Program-made: the position numbers and the translations under genes
Sequence record: NZ_AP019754.1
DNA from: a plasmid
DNA: 64,000 nucleotides
Direction: 5' to 3' (one strand)
Part shown: positions 12,136 to 56,948 of the stretch, one piece after another
Numbering within the stretch: the first letter of the stretch is position 1
Layout of the letters: every line of letters begins with the position of its first letter
Notes under the pieces: generated by a model
The model's input: the letters and a program-made list of their open reading frames with translations, nothing else
The model's database searches: none
What the model was told of the DNA's origin: nothing

Positions 12136-12139
12136 CGTA

Positions 12140-26304: not shown

Positions 26305-26319
26305 TACTCATAAAAAGGA

Positions 26320-31812: not shown

Positions 31813-31826
31813 GTGGAGTAAATTCG

Positions 31827-34069: not shown

Positions 34070-34289
34070 CGGGCCCGGCAGTGACCGGGGGAAGGCGAAA
34101 GGTGCGCTTCGTCTGTTTTGTTCCCGAAGTCGGTGAGGCGCAGAGAGTGAAATGATACAGCGCGCTCAGATAGCCCAGGAATGCGTGCAGCAGATTTTCA
34201 GAACAGACAGCGAATATGTTCAGTCAGCGCTTGCACCCTGAGGCACCATACTGCAGGATCGGTTTTTTACCGCATTTATCGGAAAGACT

Positions 34290-34577
34290 ATGACCGTTCA
34301 CGCCTCTAAAGATCCCCTGCATGGCGTTACGCTTGAAATGCAGGTCAACAGCCTTGTCGCACAGTATGGCTGGCCTGAACTGAGTAAGCGCATCAATATT
34401 AACTGTTTTAAAAACGACCCCAGCGTGAAGTCCAGCCTGAAGTTTTTACGCCGTACGCCGTGGGCGCGGGCAGAAGTGGAAGCGCTCTATCTGGCTTCGC
34501 TGAGTGAATCTCAGCCGGATTCTGCGCCCCCAGCCAGTGGTGATCCCTGGGCTAACTGGCGCGAAGATAAAACCTGA
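34290..34577 (+). CDS. VF530/DUF2132-family small protein.
   Basis: [16 protein letters not shown]...YGWPEL...[27 protein letters not shown] matches the DUF2132 core closely. Confidence 0.6.
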
Positions 34578-34601
34578 AAACGTGTTAACGCCCTTCTAAA
34601 C

Positions 34602-34640
34602 AAAAAAAAGCCCGCGTCACGGATGGCGCGGGCTTAGTTT
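34602..34640. terminator. Bidirectional intrinsic terminator between the DUF2132 gene and mqo.
   Basis: A8 tract, hairpin GCCCGCG-N10-CGCGGGC, then a T-rich run; read on the minus strand it is a hairpin followed by U8. Confidence 0.7.
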
Positions 34641-34656
34641 CGTTCAGATGACCGTA

Positions 34657-36306
34657 TTACAGCGCCATATCGTGCTGCGCCGAGGCTGGGGCTTTTTCGC
34701 TGTTAGCAGCGGGCGCTTCAGTTGGCTGATTGCCCATCTGAATAACCGGCGGCTTGGTCAGCTGCAGCGTTGCTGCCGTTTCATCCCAGACCTGCTGCGT
34801 GAGCGCAGGGTTGTCGTTCAGTTTCTGGCCGTAAGCAGGAACGATTTTACGGATTTTTTCCTGCCATTCTGCTGACTTGAATTGTTCCGGGAACAGTTTC
34901 TGCATCACATTGATTGCGATAGGTGCAGCCGTGGATGCGCCAGGCGATGCACCCAGCAATGCGGCAACGGTTTTCTGCTGATCGGTCACAATTTCCGTAC
35001 CCAGTTTCAGCACGCCGCCTTTATCCGCATCCTTTTTGATGATCTGCACGCGCTGACCGGCCTGAATCAGTTTCCAGTCTTCTTTCTTCGCTTCAGGATA
35101 GTACTCTTTCAGCGCGGCAAAACGGTCATCATCGCTCAACATAACCTGACCGATCAGGTATTTGACCAGGTCAAAGTTATCCATGCCTACGTGGGTCATC
35201 GGCATAAAGTTGTGCGTGGTCGTTGTGCTCAGTAAATCAAACAACGAACCATTTTTCAGGAACTTGGTTGAGAACGTTGCGAAAGGTCCAAACAGCACGA
35301 CACGCTTACCATCAAGGTAACGGGTATCCAGATGCGGAACCGACATCGGTGGCGCACCCACGGAAGCCTGACCATACACTTTTGCCAGATGGCGATCGGC
35401 AATCGCGCTATTCTCTGTCACCAGGAAGGATCCCCCTACCGGGAAACCTGCGTAATTGTCGGCTTCCGGAATACCGGTTTTTTGCAGCAGTTTAAGCGCA
35501 CCGCCACCTGCACCGATAAAGACGTATTTCGCGTCTACGGTACGTTCGCCGCCATTTTTGGCGTCTTTAATGGTAACGTGCCAGGAATTATCACTGTTAC
35601 GTTTAAAATCGGTCACTTCCGAAGAGGTTTCCAGGCGGAAATTATCGTTCTTCTTCAGGCTGCCAATTAACTGACGGGTGATTTCACCATAGTTAACGTC
35701 GGTTCCTACTGGCGTCCAGGTAGCAGCCACTTTTTGTTGTGGATCGCGACCTTCCATAACCAGCGGCGCCCACTGCGCGATCTGCTTGTGATCGGTTGAG
35801 AACTTCATGCCCTGGAACAGCACAGTTTTCTGCAGTGCGGCATAGCGTTTCGTCAGATAATCAACGTTATCGCCCCAGACAAAGCTCATGTGCGGCGTTG
35901 AGTTAATGAACGAACGCGGATTATTTAACACGCCGTCTTTAACCTGAGAGCTCCAGAACTGACGAGAAATCATGAAGGCTTCGTTGATTTCCAGCGCTTT
36001 GGTCACGTCAATAGAACCGTCTGCACGCTCTGGCGTGTAGTTCAGTTCCATGTTGGCTGAGTGGCCGGTACCGGCGTTGTTCCAGCCGTTAGAGGATTCC
36101 AGCGCTACGCCATCAAGTTTCTCAACCATGATCTGTTTCCAGCCCGGTTGCAGCTCTTCCAGCAGGGTGCCCAGAGAGGCGCTCATGATACCGCCGCCAA
36201 TCAGCAGAACATCTGTTTTTTCTGGTGAATTTTCAGCGTGGGTCACTGAAGAAACGAGTAACGCTGCAAGCGACAGTGCAGGTACAAATTTAGTTGATTT
36301 AATCAT
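34657..36306 (-). CDS. mqo: Malate:quinone oxidoreductase.
   Basis: 549 aa. N-terminal FAD-binding [17 protein letters not shown] and Mqo-family colinearity throughout. Confidence 0.9.
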
Positions 36307-36686
36307 TAGGGATCTACGATTTCGTGGAGAACTAGTTAAAAAAAGTTCCGAAACTTTAAAATATTGTTATTTCGTAGTTAATATGAAAATAGTTAAAAAA
36401 TTAAAAGACAGGGTTTTGCAGTTAATTTAGTTACAAAAGATTAACTTTGTTATCGATATATTTTAACCACACAATAAAGGGGCGTTTCGAAATATACAAT
36501 GCCCTAACACAAATATTCTCTGTGCGACGAATAAACGGAAATGGCGGCGCCTGACCGGAAAGTGGGGTTATTTACTGCGACAAACGTGCATTAACATGCA
36601 CGGAACAGGATGAGGCGGTTGACGAAAAAGTATGGGCAGTACACGCAACCTGATGTCCCTGAGCGATACGCCTTCAGGGACATGGA

Positions 36687-37631
36687 TTAGTGGCGAATCA
36701 GCGCCAGTTCGTCTTCACTCAGACCAGTCATCTTCATAACCGTCTCACGGTCAAGACCGCTTTGAAGCATAGTGCGGGCGATTTTCAGCGTCGCTTCGCG
36801 CTCTCCCTCTGAGCGGCCTTCTTCGCGACCCAGTTGGATGCCTTTTTCCATGCCTTTTTCCATGCCTTTTTGTTCGAGCTGCTGCGCAATGGTCATCAGT
36901 ACGTCTCCGTGTTGCGGCACGCGATGTGCCAGTTCTCTTACCAATGCTTCGGCGTCGGCGGTTTCTCCCGCCTGCACGATATAGTGTATCAGTGATACGA
37001 CCTGTGATGAAGAAAGATAGCCCGCCAGTAAGACCGGGACAAGCTTATCAACCAACTCCGCTAAATCGCGCTGGTGGATATGTTTCTGAAGCAGGGTTAA
37101 CGCGGCCATACTGCGGTGCTCTGCAATCTCCTCGTCAGGAATAATCGTGACATCCACCAGCGGAAAAGCCGTGCTATAGAGCCGGTTGGCCAGCGCAGGA
37201 TCGGTAAATTCATCCAGCCAGCGCGTGGAATAAGGATAAGGACGACGTTTCCCGGTATAGAACAAGACAGGGATGACCAGCGGCAATTTTTTATGGCCGG
37301 CTTCAAGGTGGCGCTGCATCGCCGCCACGGCATAACGCAGCAGCCTGAATGCCATGTGCTTATCCGGTGAGGACTGATGTTCGATCAGGACGTGAACATA
37401 GCCGTCATCGCCTTGTGCGGTTTTCAGGCTGTACAACACGTCGCTGAAATATTGGCGAAGATCATCTTCAACGAAAGATCCGGATTCGAGTTTTAACGTG
37501 CTGAGATCGCACACGGCCCGTAATTCCGCAGGCAGGTGCAATTCCATAAAATCACGCGCAATCTCTGTCTGCGTAAGAAACTGGCGGAAGGTGGCATCGT
37601 GAGGCGTGGGTGTACTGTTTTTTTTCTTCAT
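36687..37631 (-). CDS. Rpn-family recombination-promoting nuclease / putative transposase (YhgA-like, PD-(D/E)XK).
   Basis: 314 aa. N-terminal HDATFRQFL...LHLPAELR motif, and the YhgA-like C-terminal region with repeated GMEKG. Confidence 0.8.
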   Translation of the reverse strand: MKKKNSTPTPHDATFRQFLTQTEIARDFMELHLPAELRAVCDLSTLKLESGSFVEDDLRQYFSDVLYSLKTAQGDDGYVHVLIEHQSSPDKHMAFRLLRYAVAAMQRHLEAGHKKLPLVIPVLFYTGKRRPYPYSTRWLDEFTDPALANRLYSTAFPLVDVTIIPDEEIAEHRSMAALTLLQKHIHQRDLAELVDKLVPVLLAGYLSSSQVVSLIHYIVQAGETADAEALVRELAHRVPQHGDVLMTIAQQLEQKGMEKGMEKGIQLGREEGRSEGEREATLKIARTMLQSGLDRETVMKMTGLSEDELALIRH

Positions 37632-37890
37632 CTGTCCTGACTCTGCAAGCGCAACCTGGCGTAATGCTTACCGGCGCGAAAACGAATATGTCGATTCACA
37701 CATACATTTTGTCCAGCACTCTCTGATTTACCTGCCATGCTGTCAGTATGATTTACAGGCGTTGTCCGTCATCATGCCAGATATCCACGGTTAAAAGCAC
37801 GCTAACCTGCTTAATTTACTGGATTTCAGGCGCAAACTGTACTGGTGCGACGACTTCGCGTATGTTGCAACGCGTACCTCAACACATCTG

Positions 37891-39531
37891 ATGCTGACTA
37901 TGAATGACTCCCGGCCACAACGATCGTTAAAGAAGCGCCCAATGAAGCTCAGCACCCTGTCGTCATTGATGATGGCGGCCGTGCTGATGACCGTAATATT
38001 AAGCGTCCATCTGCTTTATTACATCCAGATCGATAACTTCACCCGTTCGCATTTGAAAGATAAAGCGATGGCAGTGGCGCGCACTCTGGCCGACAGCCCG
38101 GAGATTCAGCAGGCCCTGACGCGGCCAGACGGAAGCACCATCATTCAACCGATCGCGCAGGCAACGCGAAAACGTAACGATTTGCTGTTTGTCGTCGTCA
38201 CCGACATGCGCGGTATTCGCTTCTCTCACCCGAACCCTGAAGTGGTTAATCAGCACTTTGTCGGGAACGATATTAAACCGGCGTTACGCGGCAGGGAGAA
38301 TGTCGCGGTGAATCATGGCGTACTGGTTGAGGCGCTCAGGGTATTTACGCCCGTTTTCAATCAGGCGCATCAGCAAATTGGCGTGGTGGCCATTGGGATC
38401 TCGGTGAATGATGTCGCGGCGCAAATTGCGAAAAGCCGCTGGAATATTCTCTGGACCGTGCTGTTTGGCGGGCTGGTTGGCATGCTCGGCATATTAATCT
38501 TAGTGAAACGCTTAAAGCACATTTTACTGGGATTAGAGCCGTATGAGATTTCCAGCTTGTTTGAAGAGCGTCAGGCTATTCTCGATTCGATTAAAGAAGG
38601 TGTGATTGCGGTTGACGATCAATCCCGCGTCAGCCTGATTAATCAGGCTGCGCAGCAGCTGTTAAAAGAAACCACCCGCGAAGCATTTCTGAGCGGTGAC
38701 CGCGTGCCGGAAAATGCACAGATGCTGACGCATTTACGCGATGCATTGCACGAAGGCAAAGCCTCTTATGACGAAGAGCTCAACGTACGCGGCAAAATAC
38801 TGATCAGTAACACCGTGCCGGTGCGCAGTCGTGACAGTATTATTGGGGCAGTGAGCACATTCAGGGATAAAACAGAAATCAGCCAGCTAATGCAGCGTCT
38901 CGACGGCATGGTAAACTATGTCGATGCACTGCGGGAGCGATCCCATGAATTCATGAACAAGCTGCATGTGATTCTTGGTCTGCTACACATGAAAAACTAT
39001 GCGCAGATGGAAGAGTACATCCTTAAAACGGCCAATAACTATCAAACGGAAATAGGTTCGCTGCTACAGAAGATTAAGTCGCCTGTTATTGCAGGCTTCC
39101 TGTTGAGCAAAATTAACCGCGTAACAGATGAAGGCCACCAGCTGATCCTGAGCGAAGCCAGCTATCTGCCCGACAACGGCAGTGAACAGCAAATCGCAGC
39201 ACTTATCACGGTACTGGGCAATCTGATTGAAAACGCGCTGGAAGCGCTCGATCCGGAAATGGAAGGGGAAATCCATGTCATGCTGCATTATCAAAACGGC
39301 TGGCTGTCGTGCGAGGTCAGTGACGATGGCCCCGGTATTCCTGCCGATCAGCTCGCCGCCATTTTCGAACGCGGCGTCTCTACCAAAGGTGAAGATCGTG
39401 GCGTTGGACTGTTTTTACTCAAGCAACAAACGGAAAGTCTGGGCGGTAACGTCAGCGTGGAATCAGAACCGGGCGTTTATACTCAGTTTCTGGTTCAGCT
39501 TCCGTGGGAAAGAGGGAATATTAGCGAATGA
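37891..39531 (+). CDS. dcuS: C4-dicarboxylate sensor histidine kinase DcuS (CitA family).
   Basis: Near-colinear with E. coli DcuS: KRPMKLST, KAMAVARTLADSPEI, RKRNDLLFVVVTDM, the periplasmic PAS domain, and H-box ERSHEFMNKLHVILGLLH. Confidence 0.9.
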   Translation: MLTMNDSRPQRSLKKRPMKLSTLSSLMMAAVLMTVILSVHLLYYIQIDNFTRSHLKDKAMAVARTLADSPEIQQALTRPDGSTIIQPIAQATRKRNDLLFVVVTDMRGIRFSHPNPEVVNQHFVGNDIKPALRGRENVAVNHGVLVEALRVFTPVFNQAHQQIGVVAIGISVNDVAAQIAKSRWNILWTVLFGGLVGMLGILILVKRLKHILLGLEPYEISSLFEERQAILDSIKEGVIAVDDQSRVSLINQAAQQLLKETTREAFLSGDRVPENAQMLTHLRDALHEGKASYDEELNVRGKILISNTVPVRSRDSIIGAVSTFRDKTEISQLMQRLDGMVNYVDALRERSHEFMNKLHVILGLLHMKNYAQMEEYILKTANNYQTEIGSLLQKIKSPVIAGFLLSKINRVTDEGHQLILSEASYLPDNGSEQQIAALITVLGNLIENALEALDPEMEGEIHVMLHYQNGWLSCEVSDDGPGIPADQLAAIFERGVSTKGEDRGVGLFLLKQQTESLGGNVSVESEPGVYTQFLVQLPWERGNISE

Positions 39532-40247
39532 TCAATGTGTTAGTCGTAGACGATGATGCCATGGTGGCCGAACTGAACCGATGCTATATCGGGCAGATTG
39601 ACGGTTTTACCTGCTGTGGTACCGCGTCCACCTTACAGCAAGCCAAAGAGCGCCTGTTGCAGACAGATCCGCCCGTTGATCTTATTTTGCTGGATATCTA
39701 TATGCAGCAGGAAAACGGACTGGACCTGTTGCCAGAGCTGCGCAGTGCGGGGCGTCCGGTTGACGTCATTATCATCTCATCCGCTGCCGATGCGGCGACC
39801 ATTAAAACGTCGCTGAACTACGGCGTTGTGGATTATCTGATAAAACCCTTTCAGTTTTCCCGCTTTGAAGAGGCGCTGACCGGATGGCGTCAGAAAAAAC
39901 GGCTGATGGATAATCATCAGTTTTATCAGCAGGCCGATGTGGATCAACTGCTGCATGGTAATCAGGCCAATGCCAGCGAGACAAAACGCCTGCCAAAAGG
40001 GCTGACGCCGCAGACATTACGTACGCTGTGTTTGTGGATTGATGCGCACCCCGGTACCGAGTTTTCTACCGATGAGCTGGCCACTGAGGTGAATATTTCT
40101 CGCGTATCGTGCCGTAAATACCTGATTTGGCTGGCGCAGAGCAATATTTTGTTTACCAGTATTCACTACGGCGTCACGGGACGTCCGGTGTATCGCTATC
40201 GTCTGCAGCCGGAGTACCACACGCTTTTACGCCAGTACTGTCAATGA
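39528..40247 (+). CDS. dcuR: Response regulator DcuR (CitB family).
   Basis: ATGA overlap with the dcuS stop. Receiver domain VLVVDDD...LLDIYM and a C-terminal HTH. 239 aa. Confidence 0.85.
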   Translation: MINVLVVDDDAMVAELNRCYIGQIDGFTCCGTASTLQQAKERLLQTDPPVDLILLDIYMQQENGLDLLPELRSAGRPVDVIIISSAADAATIKTSLNYGVVDYLIKPFQFSRFEEALTGWRQKKRLMDNHQFYQQADVDQLLHGNQANASETKRLPKGLTPQTLRTLCLWIDAHPGTEFSTDELATEVNISRVSCRKYLIWLAQSNILFTSIHYGVTGRPVYRYRLQPEYHTLLRQYCQ

Positions 40248-41251
40248 CGGAGCTGAAAGCAATTATCCAGTAAGGTGAAGTGAAAGTGACGTTGTGACGA
40301 GCAAATGACCTGCTTGTCGCGCGTCACGAAGACAGCCTCAATATCAGGATGGCTTTTCAGATACGCAATGCCCTTCTCAACGCCCATGCCATAAATCAGC
40401 GTGGTATAAATATCACCGTCGATCGACTGATCGGAAATAATGGTCACGCTATACAGCTCATTATCCAGCGGATAGCCGGTATGTCTGTCAAGAATATGGT
40501 GATAACAGACGCCATCCTGTTCGAAGTAACGTTCGTAGATCCCGGACGTCACCACGGATTTGTTCACAACATGAATGACACCAATCAGGGCATCCTGGGC
40601 CGCAAAAGGGGTTTTCAGACCGATTGCCCATCCCTGCTGCGGCGCATCACGAGGTGCGCCTAACGTTTGCACGTTGCCGCCAAGGTTAATCAACGCGCTA
40701 TCGACGCCCTGCTGCTGCAAAAAAGCCTGCACCCGATCGGCAATGTAGCCTTTGGCGATGGCACCCAGATCAATTTCCATCCCCGTTTTGTTCAGAAACA
40801 CCGAACGCGTGTCCGCATCAAGCTGGACATTTTCAGGACAGGTTAAGGGCAACGTTGCCAGTATTGTCTCCCGCGCAGGAACGCAGTCACCCTGAAAGCC
40901 AATTTTCCAGCATTTCACCAGCGGGCCAATCGTGAGATTAAAACTGCTGTCTGGTAACAGACTGACGTTAAGTGCGCGCTGAATTAAATCAAAGACGGGT
41001 TGACTGACGCTCACGGGATGCTGACCGGCAGCATGGTTAATCGCCATCACTTCGGAGTGCGTCCGGTTAACCGTCAGCAGATTTTCGTACTGTTTGATTA
41101 ATCTGAAAGCCTGTGCCGCAAGCTTTTCGTCGTGCTCGAATAGCTTAAGCAGAATGGGCGATCCCATCAGGACGGCGGAATAAGCACAGACTTGCGACTC
41201 GGTTTGCATAGGCGACACCGCTCTGGGAGGGAATAAAACCGGCACCTGCAT
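40241..41251 (-). CDS. apbE: FAD:protein FMN transferase (ApbE family), predicted cytoplasmic because it has no signal peptide.
   Basis: ApbE fold motifs (LMGSPI, AKGYIADR, TSGIYERYF). No N-terminal hydrophobic segment. Lies 24 nt downstream of the flavoprotein gene. Start is ambiguous (41251 or 41209). Confidence 0.75.
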   Translation of the reverse strand: MQVPVLFPPRAVSPMQTESQVCAYSAVLMGSPILLKLFEHDEKLAAQAFRLIKQYENLLTVNRTHSEVMAINHAAGQHPVSVSQPVFDLIQRALNVSLLPDSSFNLTIGPLVKCWKIGFQGDCVPARETILATLPLTCPENVQLDADTRSVFLNKTGMEIDLGAIAKGYIADRVQAFLQQQGVDSALINLGGNVQTLGAPRDAPQQGWAIGLKTPFAAQDALIGVIHVVNKSVVTSGIYERYFEQDGVCYHHILDRHTGYPLDNELYSVTIISDQSIDGDIYTTLIYGMGVEKGIAYLKSHPDIEAVFVTRDKQVICSSQRHFHFTLLDNCFQLRH

Positions 41252-41275
41252 GCGGGCAGATGCCGGCGGTGACGA

Positions 41276-44053
41276 CTAGCGTTTGGCTAACGCCGCAGCG
41301 TTGGCACCTGCCAGAATACCAAAGATGATGATGTCCGCAACCGCGTTACCACCGATACGGTTTGCACCGTGGATCCCGCCGACAACTTCACCGCACGCCC
41401 AGGCACCGTGGATTGGCTGTTTATGGCTGTCGAGCACGGCTGTGGTGGTATCAATGGTGACGCCACCCATTGTGTGGTGAACACCGGGCGCGATGCGGAT
41501 CGCATGGAAAGGGCCCTCGTTCAACGGATGACGCAGCGCGGTCTGACGATCGAAGTCCGCGTCTTTCTGCTGTATCACAAAGCCGTTATAGCGATGCAGC
41601 GTTTCTTCCAGCGTCCGGTGTTCCATATTCAGTTTCACCGCCAGCTCGCCTACGGTTGGCGCGCTGATAACAAATCCTTTGGCAATATACTCATCGGCCG
41701 CTTTGTTATTCATACGAACCTGCTCATCGAAGACAATCCAGGCGCTTTTCTCCGGCAGTGCAATAATCTGCGCAGAAACTTTATCGCGGGTTTCCATCTC
41801 ATTACAGAAGCGCTGTCCCGCCTGGCTGACCAGAATGGCCCCACCGCCACGAATAGACTCTGACACCAGATAGGATGTGGTTTGCTCAACCGTTGGGTGA
41901 ATCTGAATCTCGCCCATATCCACGGTATCCGCACCAATTTTTTGCAGCATCGCAATGCCTGCGCCAGTGGCCCCTTTATGGTTGGTGGTGACAAAGCCAT
42001 CCAGCTCAGGGCGGTATTTCACCACCATTTCCCGGTTGGCGCTGAAGCCACCTGTTGCGACGATGACGCTTTTCGCATTGAGAATACGGCTGTCGTTGTA
42101 TTCATCCACCACTTTGACACCGCTGACCGCGCCGTTGTCGAACAAAATTTCCTCTACGGCGGTTTCAAGCAGGACGTCAATATTACGGTTATTGATATTT
42201 TTCACTAACCCACTGATCAGGAAGCCGCCAACGGCCGAGCGGTCGGCAGGACGGTGCGTACGATCAATGCTCATGCCGCCGGTGATGGTGATGTCATTCA
42301 GTTCGATACCGTGATCGGCCAGCCAGTCAATGGCTTCAGGCGCCAAATCAACGAACTCGCGCAGCAGGGTCGGGTTGTTTTTGTACTTACCGCCCTTGAG
42401 CGTTTCCTCATAAAACAGTTCTTTGCTGTCTTCGATACCTTTCAGTTTCTGAAAACGCGTCTCGGCGGCGTTCATCCCTACGGATGCTTTGATCGTGTTA
42501 CCGCCGATAGTGGGCATTTTCTCAATGACAACCACTTTGGCACCTTCATCATGCGCCTGAATGGCCGCGGCCAGACCGGCACCGCCGCTTCCCACGACCA
42601 CCACATCATACTGTTGCGGTGCATTGGGATTACCGCCCTCTTCAATCACATGGGCTTTATTTGAAGTGGTCATTGCACGCGATACTGCTTTTTTCAGGGC
42701 CTCACTCTGCGTGGTCGCGCCGGTGATAGCATCAACGTGTGGGCTGTTAGCCACCAGAATACGATTACGCAGGCTTTCGAAGGTGGTAGTGAAGTCAACG
42801 TCCAGCGTGTCGTCCGGTACCAGCGAGATATCTGTAATACGGTCGGTATCCAGCGTGACGTTGATCTTCAGCTTAAGCGCTTCGGCCTCAACTTTTTCCT
42901 GATAAACACCGGCTTTGTATTTGCGTCCCGACTCACTCATATCGCGAATCATGGCGTCAACCAGCGAGAAACGCCACAGCGGTTCAGGGATCAATAACGC
43001 TTCACGCTGGTTACTGTCGATGTAAAGTTCAAGATGCTCATTATTGATAATGCGATCTGTCCAGTCGGGATAAGCGATGCAGGCTTTACCAATCGCAACC
43101 AGGTCATAGCCTTTTTCCAGCGCTTTTTCCGCATCTTCTTTGTTTACCACACCGCCAACGCCAATGACCGGCACTTTCGCCAGCGTTGGGGACCGCATGT
43201 TAATAAACTTCTCAATCAGCGGGGTTGGATCGGTGGTATCAACGATAGAGGGGCGCATAAGCTGCCCAACAGAAAAGTGGACATAATCGAGCCCGCGTGC
43301 CGCCAGCTTTTCCAGTAGGTACAGGGTGTCATCGAAACGGATGCCCGGGACTTCAAGTTCTTCAGGGGAAAAACGATAGCCGATGATGAACCCGTTATGT
43401 GCAAATCGCGCGGCCATTTTATGGGTAATTTCGAGGACTTCCAGCGGAAAGCGGGCACGGTTATCGCGACTGCCGCCCCATTTGTCATCGCGTTGATTGG
43501 AATTGGGTGAGTAAAATTGCTGTATCAGATAGGTGTTTGCGCCATGAATTTCAACGCCATCAAATCCGGCTTTAATGGCGCGGTTAACGGCGTCACCAAA
43601 TTTAGTGATCATGGTATCCACTTCTTCTGCCGTTAGCGCGCGCGGCGTCGTGGCACCCTCACGAGGTGCGGCAATGGCGCTTGGGGCGACAGGGGTTTTC
43701 CCCCCTATCAGCTCAGGCTCAACCATGCGGCCGCCGTGATAGATCTGCAAAATCGCTGTCGAACCTTCCTGCTTGATGGCGTCAGCAATTCGCTTTAGGC
43801 CCGGAATTTTGTTGTCGCTGTCGATGGCTATAGCCCCTGGAAACGCGGGACCTTTTGGATCGATAAAACAGCATTCAACAATGACCGTTCCGATGCTGCC
43901 AGCACGGGCACGATAATATTCAACCAGTTCACTGGTGACCGTTCCGTCATAAAAACCGGTGCAGGTTGTCATGGGTGCCATGATCAGGCGATTTTTTAAA
44001 ACCGCGCCACGCGGCAACGTAATGGAATTGAGAATGGGGGTGAGTGTATTCAT
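41276..44053 (-). CDS. Three-domain soluble flavoprotein: OYE-like NADH:flavin oxidoreductase, FMN_bind, and an FAD-binding fumarate-reductase-type domain. Resembles the Klebsiella NADH:fumarate oxidoreductase.
   Basis: N-terminal TIM-barrel OYE motifs. Central FMN_bind with DAITGATT (a [S/T]GAT flavinylation site). C-terminal FAD_binding_2 with VVVVGSGGAGLAAA, QIHPTV, SIRGGGAIL, HHTMGG and NRIGGNA. GGAG Shine-Dalgarno before the ATG at 44053. Confidence 0.8.
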   Translation of the reverse strand: MNTLTPILNSITLPRGAVLKNRLIMAPMTTCTGFYDGTVTSELVEYYRARAGSIGTVIVECCFIDPKGPAFPGAIAIDSDNKIPGLKRIADAIKQEGSTAILQIYHGGRMVEPELIGGKTPVAPSAIAAPREGATTPRALTAEEVDTMITKFGDAVNRAIKAGFDGVEIHGANTYLIQQFYSPNSNQRDDKWGGSRDNRARFPLEVLEITHKMAARFAHNGFIIGYRFSPEELEVPGIRFDDTLYLLEKLAARGLDYVHFSVGQLMRPSIVDTTDPTPLIEKFINMRSPTLAKVPVIGVGGVVNKEDAEKALEKGYDLVAIGKACIAYPDWTDRIINNEHLELYIDSNQREALLIPEPLWRFSLVDAMIRDMSESGRKYKAGVYQEKVEAEALKLKINVTLDTDRITDISLVPDDTLDVDFTTTFESLRNRILVANSPHVDAITGATTQSEALKKAVSRAMTTSNKAHVIEEGGNPNAPQQYDVVVVGSGGAGLAAAIQAHDEGAKVVVIEKMPTIGGNTIKASVGMNAAETRFQKLKGIEDSKELFYEETLKGGKYKNNPTLLREFVDLAPEAIDWLADHGIELNDITITGGMSIDRTHRPADRSAVGGFLISGLVKNINNRNIDVLLETAVEEILFDNGAVSGVKVVDEYNDSRILNAKSVIVATGGFSANREMVVKYRPELDGFVTTNHKGATGAGIAMLQKIGADTVDMGEIQIHPTVEQTTSYLVSESIRGGGAILVSQAGQRFCNEMETRDKVSAQIIALPEKSAWIVFDEQVRMNNKAADEYIAKGFVISAPTVGELAVKLNMEHRTLEETLHRYNGFVIQQKDADFDRQTALRHPLNEGPFHAIRIAPGVHHTMGGVTIDTTTAVLDSHKQPIHGAWACGEVVGGIHGANRIGGNAVADIIIFGILAGANAAALAKR

Positions 44054-44444
44054 TGCGATTAACTCCAAAAATTCAAAACTCGGGAATTCTGTGCGGACGC
44101 TTTTTTATTAATAAATAAGTGGTCCGATGTCATAACGCTAATATACCAATTATTTTAGTTTCATAAGTTTTAATTTTAGTTTTTTAACTTTTAAATATTT
44201 CAAGTTTACTATTTGATTAAAGCAGGATCGTGATGTATATTTATTGTTAATCAATAGTTAAGGAAAATCAATGAGAATTGTGAAATTAAAAATACTACAA
44301 TAAAAACAATAGCTTAAACATATAATTCTGTTGCTCACCCTTCCCAAAGTGAAGCTTAAAACCCTTATTTTTGCAGTTTAAATATTTGGCTCTAGGTTAT
44401 TAATAATTTAGTTGTTAAAATTTTAATCGTATAATTTAACTTAC

Positions 44445-44458
44445 TTGATCTGGATCAA
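44445..44458. promoter_or_regulatory. Perfect FNR consensus box TTGAT-CTGG-ATCAA.
   Basis: Read directly from the sequence. It lies inside the 575-bp AT-rich divergent intergenic region between the flavoprotein operon and the DASS transporter operon. Confidence 0.5.
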
Positions 44459-44643
44459 TATTCTGTTTTTAATTAATCGCATCATATCCACATGATCTTT
44501 TATAAATGCCTCCATCGCACCAGAGGACAAGTTAAAGAATTATAAGGCATCACGGTTTATTCTCATAATTTAGAATAAAGAAGTCCCTATGGACGAATTG
44601 CCGGGACGCTGCTCGAATTATCCTTAACACGTAGAAAAATACT

Positions 44644-46152
44644 ATGAAAACACTCTCAAACGTCAAAGAGCCTCCAAAAGCAGCCCCTGCAACTGCGGGC
44701 AAAAATAAAGCACTTATGCTCCTTTTGCCGGTTTTGGTCGCCGTCCTGTTGTTACTCGTCCCCGTGCCAGCGGGTCTTGAACCTTATGCATGGCACTTCT
44801 TTGCCATCTTCGTCGGCGTCATCGTCGGGCTGATTTTTGAACCCTTGCCCGGCGCAGTGATTGGTCTGACCGGCGTCGTCGTCATCGCCTTGTTCAGCCA
44901 GTTCCTGCTCTTTAGCCCGGCAGAACTGGCCAACCCCAAATTTAAAGTGGCGAGTGAGTCATTTAAATGGGCGGTCAGCGGCTTCGGTAACTCAACCGTC
45001 TGGCTGATTTTTGGCGCATTCATGTTCGCTGCGGGCTATGACAAGACCCAGTTCGGCCGCCGTCTGGCATTGATTCTGGTGAAATACCTGGGCCGCCGGA
45101 GTTTAACCCTCGGCTATGCCATCACCTTCGCGGATTTGCTGCTGGCCCCTTTCACCCCGTCGAACACGGCCCGCAGTGGCGGTACCATTTATCCCATCAT
45201 TGCCAATCTGCCGCCGCTTTATGGTTCAAAACCCAATGACCCCAGCGCGCGTAAAATTGGATCTTATCTGATGTGGGTTGCTATCACCGCCGCCTGTATC
45301 ACCAGCTCCATGTTCCTGTCCGCCCTGGCCCCCAACCTGCTCGCCCTTGCGCTGGTCAAAAGCGTCATTGGTTTTGATATCTCCTGGGGAATGTGGTTCC
45401 TTGCCTTTTTGCCACTGGGCCTGCTGTTGATTCTGACCATGCCGCTGCTGGCGTACTGGTTCTATCCGCCTGAAGTGAAGGTGAATGATGAAGTGCCTCG
45501 CTGGGCGATTGCTGAGCTGGAAAAACTGGGTAAGTTGACCCGTAATGAAATCCTGTTACTGGTGTTTGTTGTCTGTGCGCTACTGATGTGGATTTTTGCC
45601 ACTGCCTGGATCGAACCGGCCATGGCCGCTCTGCTGGTGATTATCCTGATGCTGTGGACCGGGGTACTTAACTGGAACGACATCACTAGCAATAAAGCCG
45701 CCTGGAACACCTTTGCCTGGTTTGCCACACTGGTTGCGCTGGCCGATGGTTTAGCCCGCGTAGGCTTTATCGCCTGGCTGGGCAAAGAAGGGGGAATGTT
45801 ACTGCAGGGATACGATCCTCAAGTGTCGGCTGTGGTGCTGTTGATTGCCTTCTTCCTGCTGCACTACCTGTTTGCCAGTACCACCGCGCATACGACCGCC
45901 TTGCTGCCTGCGATGTTAACCATTGCCGCTTCCATTCCAGGTATTAACATGCCCGTGTTTTGCCTGATGCTGTGTACTTCACTGGGTGTGATGGGGATTA
46001 TCACCCCTTACGGTACCGGCCCAAGCCCTATTTATTACGGCAGCGGCTATTTACCTACGAAAGATTACTGGCGTCTGGGCACCATCTTTGGTGCTATCTT
46101 CCTGATTGCTATGATGCTCATCGCCTACCCCTGGATGGTGTGGATGTTCTGA
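44644..46152 (+). CDS. DASS-family dicarboxylate antiporter (TtdT-like tartrate/succinate-type anion exchanger).
   Basis: 502 aa. Motifs PVPAGLE, SNTARSGG, KAAWN and TPYGTGPSPIYYGSGYLPT are colinear with E. coli TtdT (YgjE). Confidence 0.85.
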   Translation: MKTLSNVKEPPKAAPATAGKNKALMLLLPVLVAVLLLLVPVPAGLEPYAWHFFAIFVGVIVGLIFEPLPGAVIGLTGVVVIALFSQFLLFSPAELANPKFKVASESFKWAVSGFGNSTVWLIFGAFMFAAGYDKTQFGRRLALILVKYLGRRSLTLGYAITFADLLLAPFTPSNTARSGGTIYPIIANLPPLYGSKPNDPSARKIGSYLMWVAITAACITSSMFLSALAPNLLALALVKSVIGFDISWGMWFLAFLPLGLLLILTMPLLAYWFYPPEVKVNDEVPRWAIAELEKLGKLTRNEILLLVFVVCALLMWIFATAWIEPAMAALLVIILMLWTGVLNWNDITSNKAAWNTFAWFATLVALADGLARVGFIAWLGKEGGMLLQGYDPQVSAVVLLIAFFLLHYLFASTTAHTTALLPAMLTIAASIPGINMPVFCLMLCTSLGVMGIITPYGTGPSPIYYGSGYLPTKDYWRLGTIFGAIFLIAMMLIAYPWMVWMF

Positions 46153-46308
46153 TTGTGTCAAATGCATTTCGACGCGTCATACGATAACATGCCAACACTT
46201 GCCAGCCTGTGCTTATGGCTGGCAAGCATAATAAACAACTCATTCGCCTTTGATGTTGCTCCTGTCAGCCTGCGTTAACGGAGCCAGCACGTCATTAAGT
46301 GAGATACT

Positions 46309-47955
46309 ATGTCGAACAAACCTTTTTTTTATCAGAACCCCTTTCCTCTTGCCCACGAGGACACCGAATACTATTTGCTTAGCCCCGACCACGTTTCCGT
46401 GGCTGAGTTTGACGGCCAGTCCATATTAAAAGTGGACCCACAGGCATTGACGCTGCTGGCCCAGCAGGCCTTTCATGATGCGTCTTTTATGTTGCGCCCG
46501 GCCCACCAGCAGCAGGTTGCGTCAATTCTGGCTGACCCTGAAGCCAGCGATAACGATAAATACGTCGCACTGCAGTTCTTACGAAACTCCGAGATCGCCG
46601 CTAAAGGTGTCTTGCCAACCTGCCAGGACACCGGCACTGCCATCATCATGGGCAAAAAAGGCCAGCGAGTGTGGACCGGTGGCGGTGACGAAGCCGCGCT
46701 GTCGCAAGGTATCTACAATACCTATATTGAAGATAACCTGCGTTACTCCCAAAACGCCGCGCTGGATATGTATAAAGAAGTGAACACCGGTACCAATCTT
46801 CCGGCGCAGATTGACCTCTACAGCGTGGACGGTGATGAATACAAATTCCTTTGCATCGCCAAAGGCGGCGGTTCCGCCAATAAAACCTATTTGTATCAGG
46901 AAACCAAGGCACTGCTCAGCCCGGGCAAGCTGAAAAATTATCTGGTCGATAAAATGCGTACGCTGGGTACTGCGGCTTGTCCTCCCTACCATATCGCCTT
47001 TGTCATTGGCGGCACCTCTGCCGAAAGTACGCTGAAAACCGTCAAGCTGGCATCGACTCACTACTATGATGGTTTACCTACAGAAGGTAACGAGCATGGC
47101 CAGGCGTTCCGTGATGTTCAGCTTGAGCAGGAGTTACTGGAAGCGGCGCAGCAGCTTGGGCTGGGAGCACAGTTCGGCGGCAAATATTTTGCACATGATA
47201 TCCGCGTAGTGCGTTTGCCTCGCCACGGCGCATCCTGCCCGGTTGGCATGGGGGTTTCGTGCTCCGCTGACCGCAATATCAAAGCTAAAATCAACCGCGA
47301 GGGTATCTGGATTGAAAAACTGGAAGCCAATCCTGGGCGTTATATCCCTGAAGCACTGCGCAAGCAAGGTGAAGGCGAAGTGGTTCACATCGACCTGAAT
47401 CGCCCGATGAATGACATCCTTGCCCAGCTTTCGGAATACCCGGTTTCGACACGTTTGTCCCTGACCGGGACCATCATCGTTGCGCGTGACATTGCCCATG
47501 CCAAACTAAAAGAACGCATTGATAACGGCGAAGGCTTGCCGCAGTACATTAAAGATCACCCTGTCTATTATGCGGGTCCGGCCAAAACACCGGAGGGTTA
47601 CGCATCTGGCTCACTGGGCCCGACGACGGCAGGCCGCATGGATTCGTATGTCGATCTTCTGCAGGCGAATGGCGGCAGCAAAGTCATGCTGGCAAAAGGT
47701 AACCGTAGCCAGCAGGTCACCGATGCCTGCCACAAGCACGGCGGTTTTTACTTAGGCAGCATTGGTGGTCCGGCTGCCGTTCTGGCGCAGCAGAGCATCA
47801 AGAGTCTGGAGTGCGTGGAGTATGCCGAACTGGGGATGGAAGCTATCTGGAAAATAGAGGTCGAAAATTTCCCGGCCTTTATCCTGGTGGATGACAAAGG
47901 AAATGACTTCTTCCAGCATATCGAACGTGAGCACTGCTCGCGCTGTGTGAAATAA
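46309..47955 (+). CDS. fumB: Class I (Fe-S) fumarate hydratase, FumA/FumB type. It cannot be assigned to FumA or FumB from sequence alone; the anaerobic context suggests FumB.
   Basis: 548 aa. [14 protein letters not shown]...[14 protein letters not shown]... is nearly identical in pattern to E. coli FumA/FumB over the whole length. Confidence 0.9.
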
Positions 47956-47977
47956 ACACGCGGCGGTAAACATGATG

Positions 47978-48007
47978 AAACGGCCCCGTTACAGGGGCCG
48001 TTTTTTT
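47978..48007. terminator. Bidirectional intrinsic terminator after fumB.
   Basis: AACGGCCCC-GTTACA-GGGGCCGTT hairpin followed by T7. Confidence 0.7.
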
Positions 48008-48008
48008 A

Positions 48009-48662
48009 TCATCGTTGCAGACGGAGCATGGCGTCGCTTATGCTTTCGTCGCCTTCGGTCAGCTCAATAATTTTGCGCGAAATTTGCGGTGTTTCGACCA
48101 GAGCCACCAGCGTGGCGGCCACATCCTCACGCGGGACCGACCCGTAAGGAATCGCAAAATCTGCACGTACGGTGCCGCGGCCCGCCACATTGGTTAGCGT
48201 ACCGGGACGAAGAATTACCCAGTCGAGTTGGCTTTCGACCAGGCGAACATCAGCCAGCCGCTTCACGCGCATGTAATTTTCGAAACCTTCAGATGTCTCT
48301 TCGCCACGTGCGGCATCCGGGAAGACTGAAACCAGCAAAAACCGCTTCACACCGGCCTTTTCGGCTGCGGCAACCGCCAGGGATAACCCCTCGCCGTCAA
48401 TGGCGTTGGTCAGCTCAATACCCGCGCCTCCCGCCCCAGCGCTAAAAATCACCACATCGTGGCCGGCCATTTTCTGCGCCAGTTGATCCACGGTCAGCTT
48501 CTGGAGATCCCCCGCCACGGGAACCGCTCCGGCGGATTTAAGTGCTTCGGCCTGCTCAGATTTACGATGCAGTGCAGAAACCGCATGTTGCTTAGCGCTG
48601 AGCTGTTTCGTCAGATGAGAGCCAACGTTGCCCGCCGCGCCAATAATAAAACATGTCGTCAT
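48009..48662 (-). CDS. NAD(P)H-binding atypical SDR (NmrA/YbjT-like).
   Basis: MTTCFIIGAAGNVGSHL Rossmann motif. 217 aa. Confidence 0.7.
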   Translation of the reverse strand: MTTCFIIGAAGNVGSHLTKQLSAKQHAVSALHRKSEQAEALKSAGAVPVAGDLQKLTVDQLAQKMAGHDVVIFSAGAGGAGIELTNAIDGEGLSLAVAAAEKAGVKRFLLVSVFPDAARGEETSEGFENYMRVKRLADVRLVESQLDWVILRPGTLTNVAGRGTVRADFAIPYGSVPREDVAATLVALVETPQISRKIIELTEGDESISDAMLRLQR

Positions 48663-48749
48663 CGTCCTGCTCCTTTGAAAAAGTCAGATATCAGTATAGA
48701 CAATAAGCGCAGCGGTAATGAGCGCCCGTCGGGGCGCTTCAGGACATGA

Positions 48750-49814
48750 TTAAGGAATGATTTTCTCATGCTTCAGCTTATCGAAAAGCTGAGTGAAGGA
48801 ATCCAGAGTGCTCCGGTAACCGGTAAAACCCGCCTTGCGACTTTTACTCATGTCGGTGAAGGCTTCCATGGGTCGCCCCAGATCCGCGTCGGTGTGCCAC
48901 CATGAGGCCAGACGCGTGATATCCTGTTCACGCAGGTTTTCACGCTGAGCAAGCGCCTGCCATACGCTGGCCGCCTCCTGCATGCGCCCGTCAAGCGGCA
49001 TCATTTTCGCCGGATAAGCGGCAGCCTCGAGACCAAAATACGCCGCCAGTTTTGGCCACATCCAGTTCCAGCGGAAAACGTCACCGTTTACCGCGTTGAA
49101 ATCCTGATTTGCCGCGGCCGGGCTGGTCGCCGCCCACTCAAGTTGTTCAGCCAGAAGACCGGCGTCGGTCATATCCACCACGCCATTCCATTGCTCGGGT
49201 GAACCCGGGAAGATAAACGGCCAGCCTTTTTCTTTACATAAGGTGGCGTAAACGGCCAGAGTCTGCCCCATGTTCATGGCATTTCCGAGCGCATAGCCAA
49301 TGATGGTATGCGGACGGTGGACGCTCCAGCGATAGCCATATTTTTCGGCGCCAGCGAAGACTTCATCCTCCTGGGCATAATAGAAGTTGTCTACCGGCTG
49401 ACGACCCTGCTCTTCGCGGAAAGGCGTGACCGGCACAGCGCCTTTGCCGTAAGCTTCAAATGGCCCCAGATAGTGCTTAAGGCCCGTCACCAGCGCCACA
49501 TGTGCGCCCTGGAGGCGTTCGCCAAGCGCTTCAATAACGTTGCGGATCATGCCGCCATTGACGCGGATATTCTCTTTTTCACTGTCCTGGCGCGCCCAGA
49601 CGCTGAAGAACACTGCATCAGGTTTGACCGCTTTCAATGCCGTTTTTACCGCTTCAGGATCGGTTAAATCTGCGGTGAGGTTGCTGCAGCCCTCAGGTAC
49701 CGCGCTGCGGCCCCGTGACAACCCGCTGACCTGCCAGCCTTCGTTATTTAGCCTTTCTGCTAACGCTCGACCAATCACACCACTGATTCCAACAATCAAA
49801 GCCTGCTTTTGCAT
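48750..49814 (-). CDS. SDR-family NAD-dependent oxidoreductase (PRISE/5beta-reductase-like).
   Basis: ALIVGISGVIGRAL Rossmann motif. 354 aa. Overall pattern matches the progesterone-5beta-reductase-like bacterial SDRs. Confidence 0.7.
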   Translation of the reverse strand: MQKQALIVGISGVIGRALAERLNNEGWQVSGLSRGRSAVPEGCSNLTADLTDPEAVKTALKAVKPDAVFFSVWARQDSEKENIRVNGGMIRNVIEALGERLQGAHVALVTGLKHYLGPFEAYGKGAVPVTPFREEQGRQPVDNFYYAQEDEVFAGAEKYGYRWSVHRPHTIIGYALGNAMNMGQTLAVYATLCKEKGWPFIFPGSPEQWNGVVDMTDAGLLAEQLEWAATSPAAANQDFNAVNGDVFRWNWMWPKLAAYFGLEAAAYPAKMMPLDGRMQEAASVWQALAQRENLREQDITRLASWWHTDADLGRPMEAFTDMSKSRKAGFTGYRSTLDSFTQLFDKLKHEKIIP

Positions 49815-49913
49815 GTTAATTCTCCTCTTTTTGCGTAATGCTAAGCGTAATAGAGAATTTCATTCCTATTTTGGGTAATAATTCACATCATTATCAACCT
49901 GAGTTCATCAATC

Positions 49914-50816
49914 ATGCACGATCAGCGTCTTAAAGACATTGTTCCTTTTGTGGCCAGTGTAGAAAGCGGGAGTTTTACCGCTGCGGCTGCCCGTTTACAT
50001 GTCACGGGTTCTGCCATCAGTAAAAGCGTTAGCCGACTGGAGATGCGACTGGGCTCGCGCCTGCTCGAACGCACAACGCGAAAACTGCAACTGACGGATG
50101 CGGGCAGCGCCTATTACCAAACCTGCTTACGCATCATGGAAGAGCTGGCCGAAGCAGAAGCCGTCCTGGCTGCGCAACGGATTATTCCTTCCGGCCGTCT
50201 GAGACTGGCTGTGCCGCATACTTATGGTCGGCTGAACGTGATGCCGTTGCTGATTCCGTTTTGTCAGCAGCATCCCGAGCTTGAATTGAGAATGAGTTTT
50301 TCAGATCGCTTCATCGATCTGTTTGATGAAGGCATCGACGTTGCGGTCAGAATTGGCGGCTCAGATGATTTACCCGCATCAATGGGCTGCCGTCATATTG
50401 GTCGTGAACGCATGGTGTTTTGTGCCTCGCCAGCGTGGCTGGAACGCGAAGGACGGCCGCAAAATGAACAGGCACTCATGCAGCATCGGGCCATTCTGTA
50501 TGAACGGGCCGATAACACGCCAAAACCCTGGTTATTTAGTGGTAAAGACGGTCATTCGTACTGGCGGGACGTTCCCTTTCGCATGGCGCTGGCTGATGTG
50601 GATGCACAACTACAGGCAGTAATTGCCGGATTAGGCGTTGCACAAATGCCCTCGTGGCTGGTACAGAACGCCGTTGACAGTGGTGAACTGGAAATCTTAC
50701 TGCCGCAGCAGCAACCCGAGGGGCTGCCACTCAGTGTGATTTGGCCCCGGCGTAAGCAGCTTCTGCCTAAAGTGGATGTTTTATTAACCACGCTAACGCA
50801 GTTAACCATTCGTTGA
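49914..50816 (+). CDS. LysR-family transcriptional regulator, divergent from the SDR gene.
   Basis: HTH FVASVESGSFTAAAARLHVTGSAISKSVSRLE. 300 aa. Confidence 0.85.
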   Translation: MHDQRLKDIVPFVASVESGSFTAAAARLHVTGSAISKSVSRLEMRLGSRLLERTTRKLQLTDAGSAYYQTCLRIMEELAEAEAVLAAQRIIPSGRLRLAVPHTYGRLNVMPLLIPFCQQHPELELRMSFSDRFIDLFDEGIDVAVRIGGSDDLPASMGCRHIGRERMVFCASPAWLEREGRPQNEQALMQHRAILYERADNTPKPWLFSGKDGHSYWRDVPFRMALADVDAQLQAVIAGLGVAQMPSWLVQNAVDSGELEILLPQQQPEGLPLSVIWPRRKQLLPKVDVLLTTLTQLTIR

Positions 50817-56580: not shown

Positions 56581-56948
56581 CTGATACTCCTGTGTTATCG
56601 AGAGGTTATCCTGGGACGAGAGCGAAATTCATCCAATCCACAATGAAACAGTATATGTCTCAAAACCCGACAGAGAAGTGCGACAGGAGCCCACAGAAAA
56701 GAGGAGAAGAGAAATAAAAACCGCAGTTCGCCAGAGGCGACAGGCCTTCAGGATCGGCCTGTGAAGGGGAATAAGGCTTATTTTACTGTCATCTTTCAGG
56801 GTGAAATCGCCAGTATTTAGCGCCCGATTGCCGGTAGCAAACCGGTCTGACGCCTTTTTTTTATTTACACAAAAGGCCTGATACTTGATCTGAATCACAA
56901 AAATCCGCATGATCTGCATCAAACATTTAAACAGGTATTGAGGCAAAA

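Follow-up and report, generated by a model that had tools for sequence, protein, structure and literature searches.

A Gene Cluster of the Pantoea ananatis Megaplasmid LPP-1 Predicted to Support Cytoplasmic NADH-Linked Fumarate Reduction

Gene Content and Replicon

In Escherichia coli, genes for C4-dicarboxylate sensing, transport and hydration are arranged in the order dcuS-dcuR-dcuB-fumB. The region at positions 37891–47955 of the 64,000-nucleotide (nt) stretch of plasmid NZ_AP019754.1 analyzed here (hereafter referred to as the window) retains a sensor, a regulator, a carrier and a class I fumarase in the same relative order, and FNR dependence is likewise to be expected. In contrast to E. 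coli, a carrier of the DASS family stands in the place of dcuB, and the genes for a predicted soluble NADH-dependent reductase (hereafter referred to as FRD) and for a flavin transferase (ApbE) are found between dcuR and the carrier gene. The question that arises is what such a combination might serve. Based on the comparison of sequences, it is likely that the cluster represents a self-contained set with which, under anoxia, fumarate or L-malate from outside is reduced to succinate in the cytoplasm at the expense of NADH. The features that carry this interpretation, namely, the genes present, the order of the domains, the residues for catalysis and flavinylation, the absence of signal peptides, a conserved FNR box and conserved synteny, are all directly observed.

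An earlier note on this DNA had placed six genes at 37891–47955, and the open reading frame (ORF) listing of the window revealed all of them there. The same note called the module non-canonical, which holds true relative to E. coli, but the arrangement is a common one in Erwiniaceae (47 of 80 related loci, see below). The expression "inserted operon", used there for the reductase and transferase genes, is appropriate as a description relative to E. coli, but not as that of a demonstrated event. The genes of the cluster and the hairpins associated with them are as follows.

37891–39531, + strand: dcuS, C4-dicarboxylate sensor histidine kinase (NF008298)
39528–40247, + strand: dcuR, response regulator (NF007750), overlapping dcuS by 4 nt
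40241–41209, − strand: apbE, FAD:protein FMN transferase (Pfam ApbE; RefSeq start), convergent with dcuR, the 3' ends of the two genes overlapping by 7 nt
41238–41267, − strand: GC-rich hairpin of the frd-apbE spacer (12-bp stem, 8 GC pairs), followed by TTTTATT
41276–44053, − strand: frd, soluble three-domain flavoprotein of 925 amino acids (aa), predicted NADH:fumarate oxidoreductase (Pfam)
44644–46152, + strand: DASS-family dicarboxylate carrier, TtdT-like, predicted C4-dicarboxylate/succinate exchanger (PF00939, TIGR00785)
46309–47955, + strand: class I (Fe-S) fumarate hydratase, in the position held by fumB in E. coli (NF011919)
47977–48004, both strands: strong bidirectional intrinsic terminator 3' of the fumarase gene (11-bp stem, 7 GC pairs; with a T-run for the + strand and, in mirror image, for the − strand)

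The replicon carrying the cluster is LPP-1, the large megaplasmid of Pantoea ananatis. The window is colinear, one-to-one, with plasmid pPANA10 of P. ananatis LMG 5342 (NC_016817.1; offset +213407), and the 925-aa reductase is 100% identical to a protein encoded on plasmid pPANA1 of P. ananatis LMG 2665. According to the literature, LPP-1 is a domesticated plasmid universal across the genus Pantoea, and mqo, which neighbors the cluster here, is listed among its core genes (PMC3505739, PMC12612815). The G+C content is 0.50–0.55 over the genes of the cluster, as compared to 0.39–0.41 in the 590-bp divergent intergenic region between frd and the carrier gene.

The Reductase and Its Substrate Site

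The frd gene starts at ATG 44053, with a GGAG sequence located 9 nt upstream (44063–44066). A 930-aa version beginning at TTG 44068 was dismissed as an artefact of the ORF-listing program in favor of the ATG with its GGAG. Pfam analysis revealed that FRD is a three-domain flavoprotein of the kind described in the earlier note, with an Oxidored_FMN domain (OYE-like, PF00724) at residues 23–343, an FMN_bind domain (PF04205) at residues 400–466, and an FAD_binding_2 domain (PF00890) at residues 488–910, and all four sequence motifs that had been pointed out (QIHPTV, SIRGGG, HHTMGG and NRIGG) were found in the protein. An assignment to the FrdA type fails, as FRD reaches 175 bits with the sdhA/frdA model (cutoff, 567), and no frdB, frdC or frdD genes are present in the locus. 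Unlike FrdABCD of E. coli, the system thus has no FrdBCD-type subunits, and hence no quinol oxidation or energy conservation would be expected at the fumarate step.

The recognition motif of ApbE flavin transferases has been defined as Dxx(S/T)GA(S/T) (PMC12052999). This motif is intact in the FMN_bind domain of FRD, where it reads D441-A-I-T-G-A-T447. In an alignment of 81 sequences, comprising the FRD of the window and 80 orthologs, DAITGAT is conserved throughout, the sole variation being a T to S change at the fourth position in one sequence.

Among proteins of solved structure, the FAD domain of FRD is best matched by the Fcc3 fumarate reductases of Shewanella (403 bits), followed at lower scores by urocanate reductase (6t85; 281 bits) and the soluble fumarate reductase of yeast (221 bits). 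FRD shares with Fcc3 of Shewanella frigidimarina (PDB 1QJD) a FAD_binding_2 domain whose 444-residue alignment is interrupted by a single gap of one residue (404 bits, ~52% identical), and this nearly ungapped alignment was used to map the residues of Fcc3 onto FRD. In Fcc3, the C4-carboxylate is bound by Motif I (R402, H504, R544) and the C1-carboxylate by Motif II (H365, T377), while Motif III (E378, R381, R402) constitutes the proton path (bioRxiv 10.1101/2022.01.20.477176). Residues H365, T377, E378, R381, R402, H504 and R544 correspond to H719, S731, E732, R735, R756, H859 and R899 of FRD, respectively. Six of these (H365, E378, R381, R402, H504 and R544) are identical in the two proteins, and the single difference, T377 to Ser (S731), retains the hydroxyl group. 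All seven positions are invariant in the 81-sequence alignment, with Ser at the T377 position in every sequence, except for one alignment gap at R899 in a single sequence.

A 1004-aa relative from Vibrio harveyi, which represents the acrylate reductase (ARD) type, provides a comparison. It shares with FRD the three-domain layout and ApbE-dependent FMN, and is 38% identical by BLASTP (43% over the matched stretches by phmmer), but differs in a ~70-residue insertion and in having Met, Gly and Pro at the positions of H365, E378 and R381, while R402 is retained. This substitution pattern is the one published for acrylate reductases, and ARD is induced by acrylate both with and without oxygen (bioRxiv 10.1101/2022.01.20.477176). 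Since FRD keeps the fumarate set of Fcc3, from which the acrylate-reductase type departs, the comparison favors fumarate as the substrate of FRD. The earlier note had left the substrate open and had proposed an alignment of this kind; with the alignment made, the fumarate set proved to be kept except for the T377 to Ser change.

It might be argued that FRD reduces some other α,β-unsaturated acid (urocanate, acrylate, methacrylate or cinnamate), and that its C4-dicarboxylate neighbors are incidental. Relatives of the same fold include the acrylate reductase of V. harveyi, the cinnamate reductase of V. ruber and the urocanate reductase of Shewanella, and specificity in this group is considered hard to predict by the authors of these reports (bioRxiv 10.1101/2022.01.20.477176, 10.1101/2023.03.04.531086); in addition, urocanate reductase 6t85 still reaches 281 bits, and T377 is replaced by Ser. 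Nevertheless, this explanation appears very improbable, because all of the carboxylate-binding and proton-path residues are kept (T377 as Ser), while the acrylate type alters three of them, the score of Fcc3 (403 bits) is well above that of urocanate reductase (281 bits), and strict synteny with genes for a fumarase, a dicarboxylate exchanger and DcuSR is maintained across genera.

Flavin Transferase and Cellular Location

The product of apbE matches the Pfam ApbE profile over positions 1–266 of 266 (273 bits), and its closest relative of solved structure is 7esa (232 bits). RefSeq places the start at Met15 (41209), whereas the longer ORF begins at 41251, i.e., inside the hairpin at 41238–41267; the catalytic domain begins within ~10 residues of Met15. 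As judged by alignment, the N-terminus contains neither a hydrophobic signal sequence nor a lipobox from either start, which bears out the earlier description of ApbE as signal-less. In FRD, the OYE-like domain begins, by alignment, at residue 7, leaving no signal peptide. With the domains starting at the N-termini and signal peptides lacking, both FRD and ApbE are predicted to be cytoplasmic.

In RefSeq, FRD bears the product name "flavocytochrome c", and the NCBIfam flavocytochrome c models match its C-terminal domain, which could be taken to indicate an exported reductase similar to flavocytochrome c3 of Shewanella or the extracellular FrdA of Listeria. However, no CxxCH haem motif was found in the 925 residues of FRD, and the N-terminal 470 residues consist of the OYE-like and FMN_bind domains, with no cytochrome domain. 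Fcc3, by contrast, is periplasmic and has a tetrahaem domain in this N-terminal position. Because of the missing haem-binding motif, the database name is misleading and is corrected here. Export is scarcely credible also in view of the OYE-like domain starting at residue 7 without a signal peptide, the partner ApbE having neither signal peptide nor lipobox, and the presence of an NADH-oxidizing domain, for which the cytoplasm is the only sensible location.

Between the stop codon of frd and the start of apbE, a 66-nt spacer holds the hairpin listed above, and a hairpin of different sequence occupies the same place in most of the related loci. It is likely that this element acts as a partial terminator or attenuator, which would keep ApbE, needed in catalytic amounts, below the level of FRD.

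The closest known counterpart of this pair is found in Klebsiella pneumoniae, where, according to the summaries in bioRxiv 10.1101/2022.01.20.477176 and PMC12052999, Bertsova et al. (2014, 2020) characterized FRD (KPK_2907) together with the cytoplasmic ApbE2. The K. pneumoniae enzyme has the same three-domain architecture, uses NADH as the donor and carries phosphoester-linked FMN on its FMN_bind domain (bioRxiv 10.1101/2022.01.20.477176; PMC12052999); its flavinylation needs the signal-less ApbE (PMC12052999), and it contains three flavins, its induction being reported solely for oxygen-free conditions (bioRxiv 10.1101/2022.01.20.477176). The Pantoea system shares with it the domain order, the Dxx(S/T)GA(S/T) motif, the Fcc3 set of fumarate-site residues, an ApbE lacking a signal peptide and the anaerobic expression that is to be expected. 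It differs in that the Pantoea genes are plasmid-borne and Ser replaces the T377 equivalent; the two enzymes are likened here by architecture and motifs. Induction of the K. pneumoniae enzyme by fumarate or malate was reportedly observed by Bertsova et al. in 2020. A search of cluster representatives revealed one 50%-identity cluster of full-length, colinear FRD relatives (representative 84% identical), with the next ones at ≤43%. As there is a single close cluster of this kind, the FRDs of K. pneumoniae and Pantoea likely belong to it together, and the search result suggests as much.

Carrier and Fumarase

The DASS carrier scores 521 bits with PF00939 and 496 bits with TIGR00785. It is 56% identical to the L-tartrate/succinate antiporter TtdT of E. 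coli over 472 residues without gaps, so that the carrier in dcuB's place is indeed TtdT-like, as had been claimed, and it belongs with TtdT to the exchanger branch of the DASS family, which also comprises LaINDY and the DiT carriers of plastids. In the search against solved structures, the only relatives were LaINDY (6wu1) and chloroplast DiT1 and DiT2.1, which are exchangers, and Na+-symporter structures such as VcINDY were not matched. With all of the solved relatives being exchangers and no Na+ symporter among them, antiport is the likely mode of transport. Unlike TtdT, the Pantoea carrier is linked to genes for a fumarase and a fumarate reductase and not to ttdAB-ttdR, and its substrate is, therefore, probably malate or fumarate.

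The fumarase matches NF011919 over its full length with 1200 bits (equivalog cutoff, 1105) and is 87% identical to E. coli FumB, in agreement with the FumA/B type proposed earlier. The best E. coli DNA match of its gene is fumB (77.8%), and the gene also occupies the fumB position. The label FumA given to this protein by PGAP is misleading in view of the best match and the position. The 156-bp spacer between the carrier and fumarase genes contains an inverted repeat, TTGCCAGCC-N9-GGCTGGCAA, at 46198–46226, which has no T-run and may function in the processing or stability of the RNA, or as a weak terminator between the two genes.

Given the kinship with TtdT, it is possible, if rather less probable, that the cluster serves mainly L-malate or tartrate fermentation and not the uptake of fumarate. 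In that case, malate or L-/D-tartrate would enter through the DASS carrier against succinate, the class I hydratase would yield fumarate (or, with tartrate, oxaloacetate), and FRD would reduce only such fumarate as is formed inside the cell. The closest characterized carrier is an L-tartrate/succinate antiporter (56% identity), the hydratase gene is predicted to be co-transcribed with the carrier gene, and in Pantoea the cluster has mqo, the gene for malate:quinone oxidoreductase, as its neighbor. Moreover, plant tissue is rich in malate, and FumB of E. coli doubles as a D-tartrate dehydratase under DcuSR control. On the other hand, no ttdAB-type L-tartrate dehydratase is encoded at the locus, the hydratase scores above the fumarase equivalog cutoff, and the DcuS residues described below fit a general C4-dicarboxylate sensor. 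This alternative refines the explanation by reduction of external fumarate or malate more than it opposes it.

Synteny and Distribution

The conservation of the cluster was assessed in 80 related loci from species-representative genomes. The full order of fumarase, DASS carrier, FRD, ApbE, DcuR and DcuS genes was observed in 47 of these, with Pantoea, Erwinia, Izhakiella, Rahnella and Ewingella among the hosts. In Pantoea, full clusters reside on LPP-1 plasmids, and are chromosomal in P. dispersa and P. eucrina; the six-gene order is also found on chromosomes of Erwinia and on megaplasmids of Rahnella and Ewingella. In the plasmid collection, the FRD gene was present on 73 Pantoea and 12 Rahnella plasmids, and no Klebsiella copy was found.

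The constant core across the loci is the divergent DASS-FRD pair. It occurs alone in Rahnella (the 87% identical copy), Cedecea and some Enterobacter, where genes for ApbE, DcuSR and fumarase are not nearby and a LysR-type gene is often adjacent. Rahnella and Ewingella hold two copies of the reductase, one of 87% identity in the bare DASS-FRD pair with a LysR-type gene near (loci L018, L023 and L027–L029), and one of 76% identity in the full cluster (L074–L080; on megaplasmids in Rahnella). In Cedecea and Enterobacter sp. (L066–L069 and L071; ~7800–12800), the pair is located between cyoA-side genes and a region with major facilitator superfamily, lipoprotein and trigger-factor genes. As apbE is absent from the vicinity of this pair, the flavin transferase must be encoded elsewhere in these bacteria.

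The mqo gene adjoins the cluster only in Pantoea. It is separated from dcuS by a Rpn/YhgA-family (Transposase_31) gene (36687–37631) only in P. ananatis and P. allii, whereas in other Pantoea mqo lies directly next to dcuS.

Sensor-Regulator Pair and Intergenic Regulatory Region

Both signaling proteins are near-colinear with their E. coli counterparts, as had been noted before. DcuS matches NF008298 (DcuS/MalK) with 787 bits against a cutoff of 520 and is 62% identical to E. coli DcuS over its full length; the C4-dicarboxylate ligand residues R107, H110, R147 and F149 in the periplasmic PAS/Cache domain of the latter (PDB 3BY8) are retained as IRFSHP and ALRVFTP. DcuR matches the NF007750 equivalog with 448 bits (cutoff, 262) and is 75% identical to E. 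coli DcuR, also over its full length, with an almost identical C-terminal DNA-binding (helix-turn-helix) region.

A generic scan of the intergenic region for sigma-70 promoters and terminators revealed promoter-like sites no more frequently than in shuffled sequences, and phylogenetic footprinting was used instead. Elements of the region are listed below.

44140–44145, − strand: predicted −10 element TATATT of the frd-apbE promoter, within the conserved GGTATATT, ~95 nt upstream of the frd ATG; predicted start near 44133
44175–44191, − strand: AT-rich 17-nt block AAAGTTAAAAAACTAAA, candidate DcuR operator, at about −58 to −42 of the frd promoter
44258–44271, − strand: degenerate FNR-like site TTGATTTTCCTTAA, which reads TTGATTTTTGTCAA in many loci of Erwinia, Rahnella and Pantoea
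44480–44485, + strand: predicted −10 element CATCAT of the DASS-fumarase promoter, 21 nt past the FNR box; predicted start near 44492

On the side of the carrier gene, an exact match to the FNR consensus TTGAT-N4-ATCAA, TTGATCTGGATCAA, is located at 44445–44458. The window has no other exact match. Each of the 47 full-cluster loci contains the box, as opposed to 0 of the 23 loci that have the DASS-FRD pair only. The element TCGCAT(C/T)ATAT follows the FNR box at a fixed distance of 21 nt in 49 loci, and its hexamer CAT(C/T)AT fits a −10 element. Given this spacing to a conserved −10-like hexamer, the center of the FNR box falls at about −40.5 from the predicted start, close to the class II position of −41.5. 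Thus, the box is predicted to be a class II activator site for the DASS-fumarase promoter, and what had been a guess of FNR control is now backed by an exact, conserved box with class II spacing.

On the opposite side, 43 of the 47 full-cluster loci have the sequence G(G/T)TATATT (44140–44147, − strand) at a constant distance of ~95 nt before the frd start codon. It is missing at that position in the loci with the DASS-FRD pair only; a match with one mismatch, located ~183 nt before the start codon in two of these (L027 and L031), is unrelated. No recognizable −35 box was found at the frd promoter. An activator is, therefore, to be expected, and DcuR is the obvious candidate. The AAAGTTAAAAAACTAAA block sits 43–44 nt upstream of the frd −10 element (44 nt in 28 of 31 loci) and, at ≤3 mismatches, was detected in 31 of the 47 DcuSR-linked loci, as opposed to none of the 23 DASS-FRD-only loci. 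The block at 44175–44191 is a candidate DcuR operator by this correlation. A tandem DcuR motif, (T/A)(A/T)(T/C)(A/T)AA, was reportedly described by Abo-Amer et al. in 2004. In the LEE1 region of enterohemorrhagic E. coli, one DcuR footprint of 18 bp covers a similar position, −62 to −45 (PMC10636207). As regards the DcuR control suggested in the earlier note, the promoter block does co-occur with DcuSR linkage, but the support is only correlative. A short resemblance, AAAAGTTAATTAACTA, in the E. coli dcuR-dcuB region was not counted as evidence.

The genes could also be mere neighbors and not one regulatory unit, with DcuSR serving dctA or chromosomal dcuB/frdABCD and frd-apbE being expressed independently. 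Several observations are in line with this: the intergenic region does not significantly resemble the regulatory region of dcuB in E. coli, the DcuR site is a candidate only, and Rahnella, Cedecea and Enterobacter have DASS-FRD pairs that lack DcuSR and are often accompanied by a LysR-type gene. Nonetheless, separate units seem unlikely, since 47 loci, on various replicons and in various families, share the order of the six genes, the frd promoter elements and the FNR box are confined to the DcuSR-linked version, and the NADH:fumarate oxidoreductase is induced solely without oxygen (bioRxiv 10.1101/2022.01.20.477176).

An Rfam scan of positions 34000–50000 returned no family at E-values up to 0.1. 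In the ~50 nt before the carrier start (44590–44643), a CCGGG...CGCATTCTTAACTTGCAGAC-like block is conserved across genera, and no clear Shine-Dalgarno sequence is seen.

Proposed Function

The anoxic reduction of external fumarate or L-malate to succinate by this cluster may be envisaged as follows. DcuS would sense periplasmic C4-dicarboxylates and phosphorylate DcuR, which in its phosphorylated form would activate the frd-apbE promoter, while FNR would switch on the divergent DASS-fumarase promoter in the absence of oxygen. The DASS carrier would take up external malate or fumarate and release internal succinate, and the class I fumarase would convert malate to fumarate. Cytoplasmic ApbE would attach FMN to Thr447 in the FMN_bind domain of FRD, and electrons would pass from NADH to the FMN of the OYE-like domain, then to the covalent FMN, to FAD and finally to fumarate. 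As neither a quinone nor a membrane subunit takes part, NAD+ would be regenerated without a proton gradient, i.e., with no direct energy conservation. From the sequence features we infer the substrate of the carrier, the binding of DcuR, the operon boundaries, the enzyme activity and the physiological role, guided by the three flavins, the NADH donor and the oxygen-free induction reported for the K. pneumoniae enzyme.

Several points weigh against this interpretation. In the substrate site, the equivalent of T377 is Ser and not Thr. No Klebsiella protein was found among the best 120 matches, whether the FRD of the window or a Cedecea/Enterobacter ortholog was used as the query, nor in the 80 loci; the relatives listed for both queries were from Erwiniaceae and Yersiniaceae. 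Transcription could end at the hairpin 3' of frd before reaching apbE, and with TtdT, a transporter of L-tartrate, as the closest characterized carrier, the imported substrate is uncertain. As for regulation, the FNR box lies ~400 bp from frd, so that FNR control is predicted for the DASS-fumarase side and is no more than conceivable for frd itself, and in P. ananatis the FNR-like site nearer frd has a degenerate sequence. The sole evidence for the candidate DcuR operator is its co-occurrence with DcuSR linkage, and the local alignment of the frd-DASS intergenic region with the E. coli dcuR-dcuB region was no better than those of shuffled sequences.

A more far-reaching interpretation would hold that, in plant-associated Erwiniaceae, the cluster fully replaces fumarate respiration of the E. 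coli type, with the DASS carrier taking over both the transport and the DcuS co-sensor roles of DcuB, and soluble FRD being the main or only fumarate reductase. The cluster would then be an FNR/DcuR-wired mobile unit moving between chromosomes and megaplasmids (LPP-1, Rahnella plasmids), which would turn plant malate and fumarate into a non-respiratory electron sink in oxygen-poor tissue. Taken as a whole, this is doubtful. The literature search on frdABCD in Pantoea or Erwinia returned nothing usable.

Klebsiella has already provided the enzyme type, the way in which it is matured by cytoplasmic ApbE and the role that it plays under anaerobic conditions, and DcuSR, the fumarase and the carrier family are known from E. 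coli. Although its interpretation is largely borne out, the earlier note was overstated in this respect: the enzyme and its cytoplasmic ApbE partner have already been characterized in K. pneumoniae, and the cluster is widespread and routinely annotated. It reveals no new mechanism, and is a well-preserved new example of a known enzyme type. New here are the conserved FNR box of the predicted DASS-fumarase promoter and the candidate DcuR operator at the frd promoter. In the searchable literature, the coverage of which is limited, no description was found of one conserved FNR-wired Erwiniaceae cluster or of its location on LPP-1. If the proposed function is true, members of Pantoea and Erwinia, among them plant pathogens as well as strains used in biocontrol and industry, would shed reducing power at low oxygen through a soluble NADH:fumarate reductase that a dicarboxylate exchanger supplies with substrate. 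The concrete sites to be named in this connection are the FNR box (44445–44458), the candidate DcuR operator (44175–44191) and the putative flavinylation site Thr447.

Other Features of the Window

According to the annotation of LMG 5342, the window also contains the genes of a three-subunit membrane sugar dehydrogenase (23340–26823), consisting of a small subunit, a GMC flavoprotein and a cytochrome c, and the dat-ddc diaminopropane genes (30430–33293), the latter being typical of the LPP-1 core. Two FNR-like boxes with one mismatch each (56885–56898 and 56909–56922) are spaced 24 bp apart, and the pair (56885–56922) lies just upstream of a gene annotated in LMG 5342 as encoding a GhoT/OrtT-family toxin.

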